A DNA stretch of 64,000 nucleotides from Candidatus Multivoradales bacterium (GTDB taxonomy: Bacteria > Acidobacteriota > Thermoanaerobaculia > Multivoradales > JAHEKO01): NCBI GenBank assembly GCA_965223875.1, contig OZ245024.1:4810315-4874314 (forward strand). The letters run 5' to 3'. The position numbers and the translations under genes were made by a program. Below the pieces are notes generated by a model. The model was not told the DNA's origin. It ran no database searches and was given only the letters and a program-made list of their open reading frames with translations. Positions 33,307 through 39,248 of the stretch are shown here, in pieces. The stretch's first letter is position 1; each line of letters opens with the position of its first letter.

Positions 33307-35886
33307 TCAGGCCTCGCGCTGCAGCAGAGTCAGCGAGCGACCCAGATCCGGTCCGCTGCCGAGGATCTCCTCGAGCAGCCGGCCCCGCTGGCGCGCCAGG
33401 CGTTGCGGGACGCTCTTCAGGTTGAAGGCGGCCGGGTCGAGCGAGCGAGTCACCTCGCGCCAGCGCAGCGGCGTCGAGACCTTGGCGCCGGCGTAGGGGC
33501 GGACGCTGTAGGGGGCGACGAGCAGCTTGCCGTGTCCGTTCTGTACGTAGTCGATGTAGACACGGTCACCGCGCGACGACAGCGACCTCTCGATCGTGGC
33601 GATCTCGGGCAGCTCGCGGACGATCAGTCGCGCCATCAGCTCGGCGAGCTGCCGTGACTGCTCGTAGGTGCACTGCCCGCCGAGCGGCAGGAGCACGTGC
33701 ATTCCGGACCCGCCGCTCGTCTTCGGGTAGCTCGGAAGCTCGATGCTCTCGCAGAGTCGGCGAATCGCCTGCGCCACCTTCACCACCCGGTCGAACGTGG
33801 CCTCCTTGGGGTCGAGGTCGAGAATGCACCAGTCGGGTCGCTCGAGCGAGCCGATGCGGCTCGACCAGATGTGCAACGGGATCGCCCCGAGGTTGGCGAT
33901 GTAGAGCAGGGCCTCCTCGCTGTCGCACACGAAGTACTCGGTCTCGCGATCGCCGTCGCCGGACCACACGGTCTCGGTTCGGATCCACTCCGGCGCGAAC
34001 TCGGGAGCGTTCTTCTGATAGAACGACTTGCCCTCGATGCCGTCCGGGTAGCGGTCGAGCACCAGCGGGCGATCCCTGAGGTAGGGGAGGAGCCAGGAGG
34101 AGACCGCCCGGTAGTACTCGAAAAGGTCTCCCTTGGTGTAGCCCTCCTGTGGCCAGAAGACCTTTCCCGGGCGACTCACTTCGACGCGATCCGGACTCTC
34201 CTGGGGATCGGGTGCGGGCGCGGCCGGGGGCTCGGACGAGGGAAGATCATCACGGGTGCAGTCGCGGACCGCCTTGTCGTCGCGCAGGCGCCGGAAGACC
34301 GGGTGCCTGAGCTGGCCGGCACCGGTGATCTCGGTGAAGGCGACCTCGACCACCAGCTCGGGCTCGACCCAGCGGTGCTCTTCGCCGGCTGGAGGCTGCC
34401 CCGAGACGGGAGCCGTCTCCCTCTCGCTGGCCTCGAGGCGCCGACGCAGCTCGCCGAGCCGCTTCTGGCTGAAGCCGGAGCCGACCCGTCCGGCGTAGAC
34501 CAGCTCTCCGTCACTGGCCTTTCCCGCTCCGCCCTCCGCGACCGCAGCCAGGTGGAGCGCGCCGAGACCGTCACGCCCCGACTTGGGCAACGTGTAGCCG
34601 ACGACGGCGAAGTCGCCGACTCGTTCGGCGCGGATCTTGATCCAGCGCGAGGAGCGTCCACCGCGATAGACCGAGTCGATGCGCTTGGCGACGATGCCCT
34701 CGAGTCCGAGTCGCCGTACCTCGGCGTAGAAGTCATCGCCCCGTTCCAGGAAGTGGTCGGCGAAGCGGATCGGGCCGATCGTCGGCAGAAGCTCGCGCAG
34801 CAGGCTCTTGCGCTCGGCGAGCGGGACGCCGCGCAGGTCGTACTCTCCGAGCGCCAGCAGGTCGAAGGCGAAGTAGGTGGCGGGCATCGTCACCGAGGCT
34901 CGCTCGACGTCGATGCGTCGCGACAGCTGGGCGCGCTGCTGGAGACGCTGGAAGCTCGGCCGGGCTTCGTCGTCGAGCACGACGATCTCGCCGTCGAGAA
35001 CGATCGACGGGAAGGGGAGGGCCGACAGGGCCCGGTGGATCTCGGGGAAGGTAAAGGTGGCATCGCGTCCCGAGCGGTAGCGCAGGTCGACTCTGGTGCC
35101 GCGGTCGAGCCGGCCGAACGGGTCGCCCGGCCCGGCCTCGCCGCGTCGCGCCGCGAGCAGACGGTATCCGTCGTACTTGAGCTCGAAGAGCCAGTCGGGA
35201 TCGGTGAAGGCCTGGCGCTCGAGTGTCGCCAGCATCGGCTTGATCCGGGCCGGATCGACGCCGCCGCGCGGCACCTCGAGCGCCTCGATGCGAGCCTCGA
35301 GGGCCTCGAAGCGGCGGGGTCCGCTGGCAAGCTCCTCGACGGTGAGACCGGAGAGCACCGATCCGGGATTGGGGGGCTCGTCCTCGGCCGTCGTCGCCCA
35401 GGCGTCCGGCTTCTTGATCAGCAGCCACTCCTTCGGGTCCCGCTTGGTACGCACCAGGGTCCACAGACCGCGCATCTTGAAGCCCTTGAGATCGAACAGG
35501 AGCTTCCCCGTCTCGATGCCCTCTTCCGGATCGGTGTGGGAGATCCACTGGCCGCGATCCCAGATGATCATCGCCCCGGCGCCGTAGTTGCCCTCCGGGA
35601 TGATGCCTTCGAAGTCGGCGTACTCCAGCGGGTGGTCCTCGGTCGCTACGGCGAGGCGTTTTTCGGCCGGATCGGTCGAAGGACCGTGGGGCACCGCCCA
35701 GGAGCGCAGGACGCCGCCGAGCTCGAGCCGCAGGTCCCAGTGCATCCTCCGTGCGGCGTGCTGCTGGATCACGAACTGCCGCGGCCGGTCGAGCGCGGCC
35801 TGCCCGAAGGGCTCCGGAGTCGAGTCGGGAGAGCGCTTCGCTCGGTAGGCCTCGAGGCGGTCGCTCGGGCTCTCGTGGGGGCTCAT
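33307..35886 (-). CDS. ligD: NHEJ DNA ligase D (phosphoesterase-ligase-polymerase order)
   Basis: PE domain (FVIQQHAARRMHWDLRLE, TEDHP.EY..FEG.IP.G.YGAG); ligase motif KYDGYR and EGIVAKR; POL domain (DLDP, KTSGGSGMHV, YIDYVQN). Confidence 0.95.
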   Translation of the reverse strand: MSPHESPSDRLEAYRAKRSPDSTPEPFGQAALDRPRQFVIQQHAARRMHWDLRLELGGVLRSWAVPHGPSTDPAEKRLAVATEDHPLEYADFEGIIPEGNYGAGAMIIWDRGQWISHTDPEEGIETGKLLFDLKGFKMRGLWTLVRTKRDPKEWLLIKKPDAWATTAEDEPPNPGSVLSGLTVEELASGPRRFEALEARIEALEVPRGGVDPARIKPMLATLERQAFTDPDWLFELKYDGYRLLAARRGEAGPGDPFGRLDRGTRVDLRYRSGRDATFTFPEIHRALSALPFPSIVLDGEIVVLDDEARPSFQRLQQRAQLSRRIDVERASVTMPATYFAFDLLALGEYDLRGVPLAERKSLLRELLPTIGPIRFADHFLERGDDFYAEVRRLGLEGIVAKRIDSVYRGGRSSRWIKIRAERVGDFAVVGYTLPKSGRDGLGALHLAAVAEGGAGKASDGELVYAGRVGSGFSQKRLGELRRRLEASERETAPVSGQPPAGEEHRWVEPELVVEVAFTEITGAGQLRHPVFRRLRDDKAVRDCTRDDLPSSEPPAAPAPDPQESPDRVEVSRPGKVFWPQEGYTKGDLFEYYRAVSSWLLPYLRDRPLVLDRYPDGIEGKSFYQKNAPEFAPEWIRTETVWSGDGDRETEYFVCDSEEALLYIANLGAIPLHIWSSRIGSLERPDWCILDLDPKEATFDRVVKVAQAIRRLCESIELPSYPKTSGGSGMHVLLPLGGQCTYEQSRQLAELMARLIVRELPEIATIERSLSSRGDRVYIDYVQNGHGKLLVAPYSVRPYAGAKVSTPLRWREVTRSLDPAAFNLKSVPQRLARQRGRLLEEILGSGPDLGRSLTLLQREA

Positions 35887-35940
35887 GAACGCGGTCGTAT
35901 CACGGGTTGAAAGGCCTAACTATGCTATATTGCCGCAGTT

Positions 35941-36834
35941 ATGAGCGTCCGGCCAATCGCCTCGGGCACCGTTTCGTTCGGCCTCGTGGCCATTCCGGTC
36001 AAGCTCTACTCGACCGCGGAGAGCTCCCAGGCGATCCGTTTCAACATGATTCACGAGGCGTGCGGGACCCGGGTCAAGTATCGCTACTACTGCCCGACGG
36101 ACGAGGAATTCGTCGAGCGTTCCGATCTGGTCAAGGGATACGAGTTCGCCAAGGGCCAGTATGTCCTGTTCACCGCCGAGGAGCTCAAGGCGATCACGCC
36201 GGAGCCGACCAACGCGGTCGAGATCCTCGAGTTTGTTCCGCTCAAGAAGGTCGATCCCATCTACTACGAGAAGTCCTACTACCTCGGCCCCGACAAGGGG
36301 GGCGCCCGACCCTACCGTCTGTTGGTCGCGGCGATGCGTGAGACCGGCCGGGCGGCGCTCGCCCGTTACGCGGCGCGCGGCAAGGACTATCTGGTTCTCG
36401 TCCGCCCGTTCGAGGACGGATTGATCATGCAGCAGCTCTACTACGGTAACGAGGTGCGGGCCTTCTCCGAGGTGCCGGTCGACGACGCCGAGATCCGTGA
36501 CGGCGAGCTCGAGCTCGCGGTGCAGCTGGTCGAGCAGATCGCCTCGGACGACTTCGATCCGACCGCCTTCCAGGATGAGGTGAAGAGGCAGGTCCGAGAG
36601 CTGATCGAGCGCAAGGTCCAGGGCGAGGAGATCGTCGCCGCCGCACCCCAGGAGCCCAAGGCGCAGATCATCGACCTGATGGACGCGCTCAAGGCGAGCC
36701 TCGGGGAGAAGGAGACCCCGAAGAGCAAGCCCGCCAAGGGGCGCAAGAAGGCCTCGGCGCGCAAAGCGCCCAGGGCGTCCGGCGCCAGCGCGGCGAGCGG
36801 CCGGGGACGCAAGGCCAAGGCGGCGAAGAAATAG
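35941..36834 (+). CDS. ku: NHEJ Ku protein
   Basis: GTVSFGLVAIPVKLYST, LVKGYE, IDLMDAL.ASL and a basic Lys/Arg/Ala-rich C-terminal tail; divergent from ligD. Confidence 0.95.
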   Translation: MSVRPIASGTVSFGLVAIPVKLYSTAESSQAIRFNMIHEACGTRVKYRYYCPTDEEFVERSDLVKGYEFAKGQYVLFTAEELKAITPEPTNAVEILEFVPLKKVDPIYYEKSYYLGPDKGGARPYRLLVAAMRETGRAALARYAARGKDYLVLVRPFEDGLIMQQLYYGNEVRAFSEVPVDDAEIRDGELELAVQLVEQIASDDFDPTAFQDEVKRQVRELIERKVQGEEIVAAAPQEPKAQIIDLMDALKASLGEKETPKSKPAKGRKKASARKAPRASGASAASGRGRKAKAAKK

Positions 36835-36863
36835 GCCGCGCAGGCGGCCGGGGACGAGAGCCT

Positions 36864-37709
36864 ATGAACGACTTGGACGCTTCCGCCGGATACAAGACGG
36901 CCGAGGTGGCGAGAATGCTCGGCTGGAGTCAGGGCGCCGTGCGCTCGAGCGTGCGCAACGGCTACGTTCATCCGACCCGTGGATCGCGCCGGGAGTACCG
37001 ATTCAGCTTTCAGGACCTGGTGGCCCTGCGAGCGGTCAAGCAGCTTCTCGACGCCGGACTGTCGCGCCGACGCGTCGGGCAGGCGCTCGGTCGTCTGGTC
37101 GAGGATCTGCCCGCCGAGCGGACGCTCGCCGGCGTTCGGATCGTCGCCGACGGCGATCGCGTCGTCGTCGAGGACGGCGAAGAGATCTGGAACCCGGAGT
37201 CGGGACAGCGCGTGCTCGATTTCCGCGCCGCGGAGGCGGCACCCGCGGCGCCGCTCCAGCACGAGCCACCGGTGGTTCCGGCCGAGCCCGACCTGGCCGG
37301 CGAGGAGTGGTACCAACTCGGCATCGAGCTCGAGGCCGAGAACAGCCGCGAGGCCAAGGCGGCCTATCGCAAGGCGATCGAGATCGAGCCCGACCACGTC
37401 GACGCGCACCTCAATCTGGGTCGACTGCTGCACGAGGAGGGCCGGGTGCGCACCGCGGAGGAGTGCTACCGCCAGGCGCTCGAGCTGCGTCCCGAGGACT
37501 CGACGGCGTCGTTCAATCTGGCGGTAGCTCTCGAGGATCTGGGGCGGCCGATGGAAGCGCTGGCCGCGTACGAGAAGGTCATCGAGGCCGACTCGGAGTA
37601 CGCTGACGCCTACTTCAACATCGCCGGGATCTACGAGCGCCTGGGAAAGCGCGCCGAGGCGGTGCGCTACCTGAAGACCTACAGGGTGCTCACCGGCGGA
37701 CGCGCCTAG
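36864..37709 (+). CDS. MerR-type HTH plus TPR-repeat protein
   Basis: N-terminal YKTAEVARMLG...VHPTRG...YRFSFQDLVALR winged HTH; four TPR-like repeats (AYRKAIEIEPDH.DAHLNLG, CYRQALELRPE, YFNIAG). Confidence 0.8.
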   Translation: MNDLDASAGYKTAEVARMLGWSQGAVRSSVRNGYVHPTRGSRREYRFSFQDLVALRAVKQLLDAGLSRRRVGQALGRLVEDLPAERTLAGVRIVADGDRVVVEDGEEIWNPESGQRVLDFRAAEAAPAAPLQHEPPVVPAEPDLAGEEWYQLGIELEAENSREAKAAYRKAIEIEPDHVDAHLNLGRLLHEEGRVRTAEECYRQALELRPEDSTASFNLAVALEDLGRPMEALAAYEKVIEADSEYADAYFNIAGIYERLGKRAEAVRYLKTYRVLTGGRA

Positions 37710-39244
37710 GAGCCTGTCCGAGTAATCCTCGACACGAGGCGTTTGTCATGTTGAGATCAGTGCATGGCTAAGAGGTTTCGTTCGTGGGAGATAGATCAGA
37801 TCTGGCTGCTGCCGCCGTCGGTCCAGGAGTTGGTGCCGGAGGGTCACGTGGCGCACTTCGTTCGGGAGACGGTCCGGGAGTCTCTGGACCTGTCGTCGAT
37901 CCTTGGCGAGTACACCGAGGAGCGAGGGTACCCGCCCTATCACCCGGTGATGATGACGGCGTTGCTTCTGTACGCCTACACCCAGGGGGTGTACTCGTCG
38001 CGGCGCATCGCGCGGGCCTGCGACGAGCGGGTGGACTTCATGGCGGTGACCGCGATGCAGCGGCCGGACTTTCGCACCATCAGCGACTTTCGCAAGCGGC
38101 ATCTGCAAGCTTTGGGGGCGCTGTTCGTCCAGGTGCTTCAGCTGTGTCGTCAGGCCGGTCTGGTCAAGCTGGGGCACGTGGCGTTGGATGGGACGAAGGT
38201 GCGGGCCAACGCCTCCAAGCACAAGGCGATGAGCTATGCGCGCATGCAGAAGGCGGAGCGGGAGCTGGCGGCCGAGGTGGCCGGTTGGTTCGAGCAGGCC
38301 GAGGCTGTCGATGCGCGAGAAGACGAGGCGTTCGGTGAGGACAAGCGCGGTGACGAGCTGCCGGATTGGGTGGCCAACAAGCAGCAACGCCTGGCCAAGA
38401 TTCGCGAGGCCATGGCGGCTCTGGAAGATGAGGCCCAGCGCAAGGATCCTCCCCCGAGCGACCCGGACAAGCCCCGCCGGGGCCGTCCGCGCAAGCATCC
38501 TCCGGGAGTGCCCAAGCCGAAGGAGCAGCGCAATTTCACCGATCCGCAGAGCCGCATCATGAGGACCCCCGATGGGTTCCAGCAGTGCTACAACGCGCAG
38601 GCGGCGGTCGATGCAGCTAGCCAGGTGATCGTGGCGCGTGGCGTGACGCAGTCGGCCACGGACCGCCATCAGCTCCAGCCGATGGTCGAACAGATCCGGG
38701 CCCATACCGGGCAGGATCCCGGCGAGCTGTCGGCCGATTGTGACTACTGCTCGGAAGGCAACTTGGCCGAGCTCGAGCGGTGGGATTCGAGGCTACGTGG
38801 CCACGGGCAAGCAGCAGCACGGCTCGCCGGCACCGGTCGGCTCGCGTCCTCGCAACGGCCCTCTGACCCAACGCATGCAACGCCGACTCAAGTGTGGCGG
38901 GTACCGCAGCCGCTACCGGCTGCGCAAGCACACGGTCGAACCGGTCTTCGGGCAGGTCAAGAGTGCCCGTGGATTCCGACAGTTCCTTCTGCGGGGCGCC
39001 GAGAAGGTCACCGAGGAATGGAGTCTCGTCTGCACCGCGCACAACCTGCTCAAGCTGGCTCGAGCAACAGCGCCATGAGGCGCCCCGACGCGGCTTCTCT
39101 GCGCTCTTGCGCCACCGCCGACCTCCTTGGTGGCCCCTTGAGAGCCGTTTCCGCGCCACCAGCTCGATTGGCCGCCTCTCAGCAACCCAATTCGCTCATC
39201 GTGACCAGCGTACCCGTCTCAAACCGCATTAGCCGGACAGGCTC
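37710..39244 (+). mobile_element. IS1182-family insertion sequence (1535 bp)
   Basis: TIRs GAGCCTGTCCGAGTAAT and the reverse complement of ATTAGCCGGACAGGCTC (15/17 match); CTAG on both flanks (37706-37709 and 39245-39248). Confidence 0.88.
37764..39078 (+). pseudogene. IS1182-family DDE transposase, frameshifted
   Basis: N-terminal GYPPYHPVMM..LLYAY..G..SSRRI...PDFRTISDFR, VALDGTKV.ANAS and YNAQAAVD; the C-terminal part (GIRGYVATG...RKHTVEPVFGQVK..RGFRQFLLRG..KV..EW.L...AHNLLKL) lies in another frame, with the shift at about 38778-38784. Confidence 0.85.
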
Positions 39245-39248
39245 CTAG

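Follow-up and report, generated by a model that had tools for sequence, protein, structure and literature searches.

Canonical non-homologous end joining (NHEJ), as studied in Mycobacterium, Pseudomonas, Bacillus and Sinorhizobium meliloti, is described as a two-component system made up of a Ku homodimer and LigD (PMC4889933, PMC7969030, PMC6379672). In S. meliloti, ku2 is located downstream of ligD2 and the Ku2/LigD2 pair is treated as the main NHEJ pathway; ku2 is induced by stress, and its regulator is stated as unknown (PMC6379672). The present work deals with a locus of Candidatus Multivoradales bacterium (GCA_965223875.1, contig OZ245024.1), in which ligD and ku are joined by a third gene, designated X here. 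All coordinates given without a locus name are positions within the 64,000-nucleotide (nt) stretch analysed (the window). X codes for a 281-amino-acid (aa) Ku-linked protein with a MerR-type helix-turn-helix (HTH), a beta subdomain and tetratricopeptide repeats (TPRs). Proteins of this kind are encoded behind ku in hundreds of bacteria belonging to several phyla. That a third gene has remained in one operon with ku in five or more phyla, and on conjugative plasmids as well, is as strong a hint as genomes can give that a part is missing, and bacterial end joining probably has such a third, lineage-specific part in X. That X is functionally coupled to Ku in one way or another, by any explanation other than the absence of a link, we regard as nearly certain.

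ligD (33307..35886, minus strand) encodes an 859-aa protein with the domain order phosphoesterase, ligase, polymerase (primase-polymerase). Pfam models LigD_N, DNA_ligase_A_M, DNA_ligase_A_C and LigD_Prim-Pol match it, and TIGR02776 (533 bits, cut-off 373), TIGR02777, TIGR02778 and TIGR02779 score above their cut-offs. ku (35941..36834, plus strand) is divergently transcribed across a gap of 54 nt. Its 297-aa product (TIGR02772, 291.7 bits, cut-off 150) has the conserved QIIDLMDALKASL motif and a Lys/Arg-rich C-terminal tail of about 40 residues with a charge of about +10, and is the sole Ku of the 5.06-Mb genome. X (36864..37709, plus strand) follows ku after a 29-nt spacer (36835-36863) and is supported by its open reading frame (ORF), Pfam matches, homologues and an AlphaFold2 model; no other full-length copy is present in the genome. 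All three ORFs lie as an earlier note, made from the sequence alone, had described them: ligD divergent from ku, with a third gene 29 nt behind the latter. Since Ku and an ATP-dependent ligase with polymerase and phosphoesterase domains are encoded together, this is a bacterial NHEJ locus.

The locus resembles the canonical two-component system in having ku beside a three-domain ligD, as well as in the conserved C-terminal motif and basic tail of Ku. It differs in the conserved third gene operonic with ku, which is not mentioned in the two-component papers that we found and searched. More than 2,000 homologues of about 280 aa (50-87% identity) show X to be a real gene; in the source databases they are named only "tetratricopeptide repeat protein" or "MerR regulator". 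X belongs to a Ku-linked MerR-like/beta/TPR family: it is located behind ku, carries the signature RFSFQDLVxLR ... W-x-P-E-S-G-Q-x-x-L-D-F and has acidic TPRs. The locus is best classed as a three-gene NHEJ module, a variant of the known system. The earlier note had regarded this protein architecture as lacking a characterised function, in agreement with our literature search, which found no paper describing the X family or linking a MerR/TPR protein to Ku.

Linkage of X to ku across bacteria

A gene-neighbourhood survey had been set beforehand as the test of the proposal that X is a third gene linked to NHEJ and encodes an accessory factor or else a regulator of the locus. The survey supports this proposal, as X homologues turned out to be strongly enriched next to ku in every sample. 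The first sample comprised 80 loci fetched from species-representative genomes as the best matches to X, mostly from Thermoanaerobaculia among Acidobacteriota, and also from Gemmatimonadota, Myxococcota, Krumholzibacteriota and Acidiferrobacterales. Of the 76 loci whose upstream sequence is long enough for assessment, 71 have ku immediately upstream of X on the same strand, and ligD is divergent from ku in about half of the fetched loci. The distance from the ku stop codon to the X start codon has a median of 25 nt and does not exceed 60 nt in 60/69 loci.

Two unbiased surveys employed a profile of the N-terminal 122 residues of X, thereby avoiding TPR noise. Among 401 evenly drawn Acidobacteriota genomes, 48 of the 60 strong X homologues (E < 1e-24) are encoded directly behind ku on the same strand. 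One more is within 2 kb of ku and two are adjacent but divergent. The remaining nine lie elsewhere; five of them are full-length copies that rearrangement has carried away from ku, and four are forms reduced to the N-domain and counted as remnants, three of the latter in genomes without a Ku match. In the 151 Gemmatimonadota genomes, all 26 strong homologues lie directly downstream of ku, which brings the total for the two phyla to 74/86. The linkage extends to distant relatives: of seven sampled family members that share only about 30% identity with X and belong to four further families of Acidobacteriota, five sit behind a Ku that is itself 32-37% identical.

The N-domain of X was also found on 32 Burkholderiales plasmid records. 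Seven of these were inspected (B. vietnamiensis G4 pBVIE01, Burkholderia sp. YI23, Caballeronia SBC2, Variovorax WDL1, P. graminis, C. necator N-1 pBB2 and C. metallidurans p2), and in all seven ku is immediately upstream of X, with a 4-nt overlap in five and a 2-nt gap in two. ligD is located within 4 kb in 5/7 of them, in the order ligD-ku-X on C. necator (Cupriavidus necator) N-1 pBB2 and ku-X-ligD on C. metallidurans p2. Overall, the placement of ligD around the ku-X pair varies: it can be divergent, upstream, downstream or absent. No flank gene besides ku and ligD recurs in more than 19 of about 100 loci. The candidates considered as further universally conserved neighbours (genes for DUF72, Abhydrolase_11, an ATL-type protein and an HGSNAT-like membrane protein) all proved to be clade-limited and were rejected. 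Short gaps, overlaps and the position of X between ku and ligD constitute a kind of coupling that would be typical of subunits.

In a maximum-likelihood tree, the main clade includes 88 linked, 6 unlinked and 4 unassessable members, and the second clade has 5 ku-linked members among 17 unlinked ones. As linked members occur on both main branches, linkage to ku may be either ancestral with subsequent losses or gained repeatedly.

The adjacency could, in principle, be due to inherited synteny or to hitch-hiking of X on a mobile ku module, X having no functional link to NHEJ. Such an explanation can draw on the presence of NHEJ modules on plasmids, on the five full-length main-clade members that have moved away from ku, and on those branches of the wider family that adjoin genes for an OPT transporter, a type II secretion system ATPase or an M19 peptidase. 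We consider it very improbable, as the adjacency holds across five phyla and down to 30% identity, through rearrangement of all other surroundings. Moreover, 56 of the 60 Acidobacteriota genomes that carry a strong X homologue also have Ku, compared to 155/401 overall.

Domain structure and conservation of X

The AlphaFold2 model of X, built with 24 homologues as input, has a mean predicted local distance difference test score (pLDDT) of 87. Together with the Pfam matches it agrees with the domain order proposed in the earlier note, namely an N-terminal MerR-like winged HTH, a linker and about four TPRs, and adds a subdomain between the HTH and the linker.

The basic MerR-type winged HTH covers residues 8-81 (36885..37106; this and the following segments of X are on the plus strand). 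Pfam MerR_1 matches residues 10-71 with 35.2 bits at a cut-off of 21.6, and PDB profile matches include GlnR, CarH, RacA and TnrA (E about 4e-6). The modelled HTH (residues 12-81) has helices at 12-19, 23-31, 49-63 and 68-81, in the order alpha1-alpha2, wing, alpha3-alpha4. A Foldseek search of the PDB with the N-terminal 122 residues retrieved NmlR, CvkR, RacA, SoxR, CueR and BmrR with template modelling (TM) scores of 0.5-0.56 over about 75 residues, and root-mean-square deviations (rmsd) of 1.2-2.2 Å in the superpositions. The HTH is followed by a family-specific three-stranded beta subdomain (residues 88-119; 37125..37220), whose strands fall within residues 92-110 of the model and whose signature is W-x-P-E-S-G-Q-x-x-L-D-F; Foldseek found no PDB fold match for this part of X beyond the HTH. 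The linker (residues 120-143; 37221..37292) is poorly conserved and disordered over residues 120-136, where pLDDT falls below 50. The remaining part of X, at the position of the effector domain in MerR proteins, is an acidic array of four TPRs (residues 145-278; 37296..37697), formed by eight helices between residues 146 and 276 of the model. Many TPR models match residues 147-275, of which TPR_1, TPR_2, TPR_8, TPR_11 and TPR_17 exceed their cut-offs, and in Foldseek the C-terminal half resembles only consensus TPRs, the TPR domain of OGT and MamA (rmsd 1.1-2.2 Å).

The N-terminal winged HTH is thus like that of the MerR proteins without a classical sensor: NmlR (5d8c/5d90), GlnR/TnrA (4r4e/4r22), RacA (5i44) and CarH (5c8d). 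The motif R-x-x-x-x-x-G-F/L-L-x-P...R-F-S-F-Q-D-L of X also fits the MerR signature. Unlike MerR proteins, X has the beta subdomain and four TPRs instead of a long coiled-coil dimerisation helix; the latter is absent from the model, where helix 68-81 is followed by strands 92-110 and then by the linker.

Joining an HTH to TPRs is an established design of peptide-sensing regulators. In the RNPP family (PlcR, PrgX, NprR, Rap), an HTH and a peptide-binding TPR domain are combined in one polypeptide; RNPP proteins have an XRE-type HTH and more TPRs (five or more), are paired with a gene for a cognate secreted signalling peptide and operate in quorum-sensing contexts in Firmicutes. This precedent, along with the bona fide MerR-type DNA-binding fold of the N-domain, whose closest solved relatives are NmlR, CvkR, SoxR, CueR, GlnR and CarH, makes it conceivable that X is dedicated to regulating transcription of the ku-X operon, and also of ligD if this gene is divergent. 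Its HTH would then bind an operator at the ku promoter and its TPR domain would sense, for instance, free Ku or a peptide related to damage or stress; NHEJ genes would thereby be switched on in stationary phase or after damage. X differs from RNPP proteins in its MerR-type HTH, the number of TPRs (four) and the ku operon setting. For the HTH of X, Pfam calls MerR_1 or HTH_17 and not XRE, which argues against RNPP membership. The lack of the canonical MerR coiled-coil dimerisation helix speaks against a regulator.

A profile search with the N-domain among 1.84 billion representative proteins returned 273 clusters (50% identity) at E <= 1e-30 and 1,346 at E <= 1e-10. In the N-terminal half, the best conserved elements are RFSFQDLVxLR and the beta-subdomain signature; the wing, alpha3 and beta subdomain are invariant, and the TPRs persist too. 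The recognition helix varies between clades: it reads QVRSxVRAGF in the main clade, VVERLIAAGF or VLSGLIDAGF in Burkholderiales and RLRYWDRIGL in distant members. The sequence-reading part of X thus does not appear to be what is conserved. In the TPRs, the A helices are 80-99% conserved, including positions not required by the fold, and the B helices retain fold positions only. This A-helix conservation is concentrated in TPR2-4 and includes positions 2, 3, 5, 6, 9, 12 and 13, which in characterised TPRs line the ligand groove. By analogy with TPR domains in general, the conserved A-helix positions of X would form a binding groove, for which N184, R187, H190 and E191 are candidate residues. 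Ku-X or X-LigD fusions were found neither among the loci nor in the top 150 representatives, all of which are no longer than 321 aa.

N-domain-only forms of 140-196 aa, consisting of the HTH and beta subdomain without TPR, occur in one acidobacterial family and are not located beside ku (L096, L098, L099 and L101 in genomes G353, G336, G100 and G159, respectively); a Ku match is absent from three of these four genomes and weak in the fourth. They may be either remnants or a stand-alone DNA-binding half of X.

A divergent form of X was found in S. meliloti 1021, where the ligD-ku pair of pSymB is followed by a 361-aa ORF starting at the ku stop codon (L166:4712-5797). Its product matches the X family with an hhalign probability of 98.7% (E 1.5e-16). 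The alignment begins at residue 46 of X and runs through the wing, alpha3, the beta subdomain and the TPRs, with RFSFQDL of X corresponding to YSFRDL and SGQxxLD to DGQLLLD. The S. meliloti protein is like X in its position directly behind ku and in the homologous part from the wing and alpha3 through the TPRs. It is unlike X in the region before the wing, which does not align with a MerR-type HTH; over its first 124 residues there is a weak resemblance to BRCT domains, namely those of LigA and RFC1 (E 0.0025-0.0056). In X itself, Pfam finds no BRCT and the HTH starts directly at residue 8. Judging by these alignments, the 361-aa protein is a remote homologue of X and a BRCT-like variant of its family. 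Its gene is not mentioned in the S. meliloti NHEJ study (PMC6379672).

The two halves of X are of opposite charge. The N-domain is basic, with a family median isoelectric point (pI) of 10.6 for residues 8-119, and the TPR domain is acidic, with a family median pI of 4.8 and a net charge of -2 to -17. One reading of this bipolarity is that X is a negative modulator or chaperone of Ku, in which the acidic TPR domain would serve as a DNA-like surface masking the basic Ku tail. X would then limit Ku on intact DNA or help to strip it off repaired DNA. The strongly acidic TPR domain set against the basic tail of Ku fits this role, and production of X together with Ku follows from the tight operon coupling. 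We find it improbable, as the case is purely electrostatic, the adaptor model presented below fits the same data, and there is no sign of Ku toxicity, or of Ku becoming trapped on DNA, in these organisms.

The ku promoter and the possible roles of X

The ligD-ku intergenic region (35887..35940) is 54 nt long. It contains an extended -10 element, TGcTATATT (35923..35931, plus strand), which ends 9 nt before the ku ATG. With the transcription start placed from this element, the ku mRNA is predicted to be leaderless or nearly so. A TAnnnT -10 hexamer is located 5-14 nt (mostly 6-10) before the ku ATG in 42/72 related loci across phyla, and in 26 of these 42 it is preceded, two bases upstream, by the TG of an extended -10; the closest relatives show the same pattern. 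The start codons of divergent ligD and ku are only 20-60 nt apart, so each promoter must lie inside the 5' end of the other gene. Sequencing runs holding the locus have even coverage, as DNA metagenome runs show.

If X were a regulator, its footprint might be sought here. A consensus scan of the intergenic region of the window found no sigma-70 promoter with a -35 element, and the region has no inverted repeat longer than 6 nt and no dyad. In 34 non-redundant ku promoters there is no enrichment of a -35 element at 19-20 nt spacing, and no word or dyad is common to the ku upstream regions; enriched words there come solely from coding sequence, the start codon and the -10 element. A universal operator upstream of ku was therefore rejected. 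Unlike the targets of MerR regulators, ku has neither a long-spacer promoter nor a dyad upstream, though a site may lie elsewhere; its promoters are of the extended -10 type, without the 19-20 nt spacer typical of such targets.

An imperfect palindrome, RTGCA-N10-TGCAC, is nevertheless found at the ku promoter in two Thermoanaerobaculia subclades (L012, L014, L017, L020, L036, L037, L041, L066, L067, L079, L080, L117; and L023, L042, L049, L052, L062, L115). It lies over the -35 element in one subclade and just after the -10 in the other, the second one listed, where a leader of about 70 nt carrying a GAGGTG ribosome-binding site precedes ku. We searched for genomic copies in the simplified form TGCACA-N8-KGCAC. 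The other copies are located in or near unrelated genes (those for radical SAM, aminotransferase, TPP enzyme and GemA proteins), and the palindrome was rejected as an SOS/LexA box. Since the copies elsewhere show no SOS theme, a local regulator is possible in these subclades.

The palindrome, placed over the ku start site or the -35 element, thus supports a regulatory role for X, as does the stress induction of S. meliloti ku2 by an unknown regulator (PMC6379672); X may be the long-sought regulator of such stress-induced ku expression. We consider this role possible but doubtful. No operator is common to the ku promoters despite the well-conserved HTH of the main clade, the recognition helix is among the less conserved parts of X, and the BRCT-like variant does not align with a MerR-type HTH before the wing. 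Besides, translational coupling behind ku, or a place between ku and ligD, would be unusual for a low-copy regulator.

The domain anatomy of X, its conserved operon linkage to ku, its charge bipolarity and its conservation pattern are direct observations, against which its possible roles can be weighed. We favour an adaptor over a regulator because of the tight operon coupling, the combination of a basic N-domain with an acidic TPR domain bearing a conserved groove, the variable recognition helix and the lack of a conserved operator or MerR-type promoter. To X as a protein-level, lineage-specific accessory or adaptor of Ku/LigD end joining we give about an even chance on this comparative evidence. 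The broader view that X acts at the protein level, either as an adaptor or as a modulator, the negative variant included, we find fairly likely. In the adaptor model, Ku and X would be made together from the ku-X operon, the basic winged HTH with the beta subdomain would hold X on DNA, and the acidic four-TPR groove would bind a short peptide of an NHEJ protein. The most obvious candidate for this ligand is the basic C-terminal tail of Ku, with LigD as a second option. In this way, X would tune the loading, retention, bridging or removal of Ku, or the recruitment of LigD. RacA illustrates that a MerR-type fold can serve a non-transcriptional, chromosome-tethering role.

Several findings weigh against the adaptor model. 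Ku proteins with and without an X partner have the same QIIDLMEALKASL C-terminal motif and tails of equal length and charge. The comparison of partnered and unpartnered Ku yielded no feature specific to the former that could serve as the TPR ligand, so that the proposed ligand lacks specific support. Nearly all the nearest structural relatives of the X N-domain are transcription factors. Ku and LigD suffice in published reconstitutions (PMC7969030), which excludes X as a core component. X is also missing from many genomes that have Ku: the latter was found in 155/401 Acidobacteriota and 99/151 Gemmatimonadota genomes, and a strong X homologue in only 60 and 26, respectively, which makes X accessory. 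Finally, distant branches of the X family are not located beside ku, some of them in genomes without ku, so its fold is not restricted to NHEJ.

Eukaryotic Ku is bound by accessory factors such as XLF, PAXX and APLF. If the adaptor model is true, X would be their functional analogue only, a non-catalytic tuner that binds Ku and DNA; we know of no sequence or fold relationship between X and these proteins. More speculatively, X and its BRCT-bearing relatives may be a genuine third structural part of the end-joining machinery of prokaryotes in many phyla, which we think rather unlikely. The accompanying picture, in which a DNA-bound TPR scaffold grips the C-terminal Ku tail (or LigD) to govern synapsis, the recruitment of LigD or the removal of Ku, is similarly tentative. 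Were it correct, X would be the bacterial counterpart of the eukaryotic Ku-binding factors, and the two-protein view would be overturned in these lineages.

As a helper, X may affect the efficiency or fidelity of repair or the capture of foreign DNA, and the question of its role bears on NHEJ-based genome-editing tools. Since orthologues are present in cultured organisms (CNE_RS37965 of C. necator N-1 pBB2, Paraburkholderia and Variovorax plasmids, with the BRCT-like variant in S. meliloti), the role of X is directly testable with standard genetics.

Other features of the locus and its relatives

The ku-X spacer contains a GC-rich hairpin, GGCCGC-GCAG-GCGGCC (36834..36849, plus strand), with a perfect 6-bp stem whose first base is also the final base of the ku stop codon. 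As it lacks a subsequent T-run on the plus strand, it is not a terminator of the ku transcript; on the opposite strand, it is terminator-like by score. The hairpin could determine how much Ku is made relative to X, or make the ku message more stable.

The ku ahead of X occupies two frames instead of one in a few relatives (L092 in G055, L091/L032 in G142); a frameshift or an error in the assembly would account for this.

In Gemmatimonadota, Myxococcota and some Acidobacteriota, genes for DUF72 proteins (19 loci) and Abhydrolase_11 hydrolases (9 loci) recur at a distance of no more than a few kb from ku/ligD. One locus exemplifies both (DUF72, L013:4755-5450; Abhydrolase_11, L013:5562-6236), and neither gene is present in the locus of the window. 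The P. graminis plasmid also has a DUF72 gene 2 kb from ku (L160:140-1036). The ligD-ku-X modules on plasmids of C. necator N-1 (pBB2, L156) and Caballeronia (pSBC2-3, L158) are located beside further genes of damage tolerance, namely those for an error-prone polymerase and an SOS-response-associated peptidase and umuD, with an H-NS family gene nearby.

A gene for an MGMT-family protein of 105-155 aa (Pfam DNA_binding_1) is divergent from ku in one Thermoanaerobaculia clade (L012:8660-9040 and ten more loci), where it is the second DNA-repair gene on the ku promoter region. The PCHR active site is replaced by PWHRVV in this protein, which makes it alkyltransferase-like.

An IS1182-family element (37706-39248) is inserted at the CTAG that contains the X stop codon, with the stop retained. 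The sequencing depth of the element is about 12-25 times that of its flanks in four metagenome runs, hence the element is multi-copy. Metagenome contigs spanning it have an extra GC after 38781 and A>G at 39114; given the two extra bases, the transposase is frameshifted in the IS1182 copy of the assembly, and the IS1182 model covers only residues 9-339 of the 494-aa transposase ORF.

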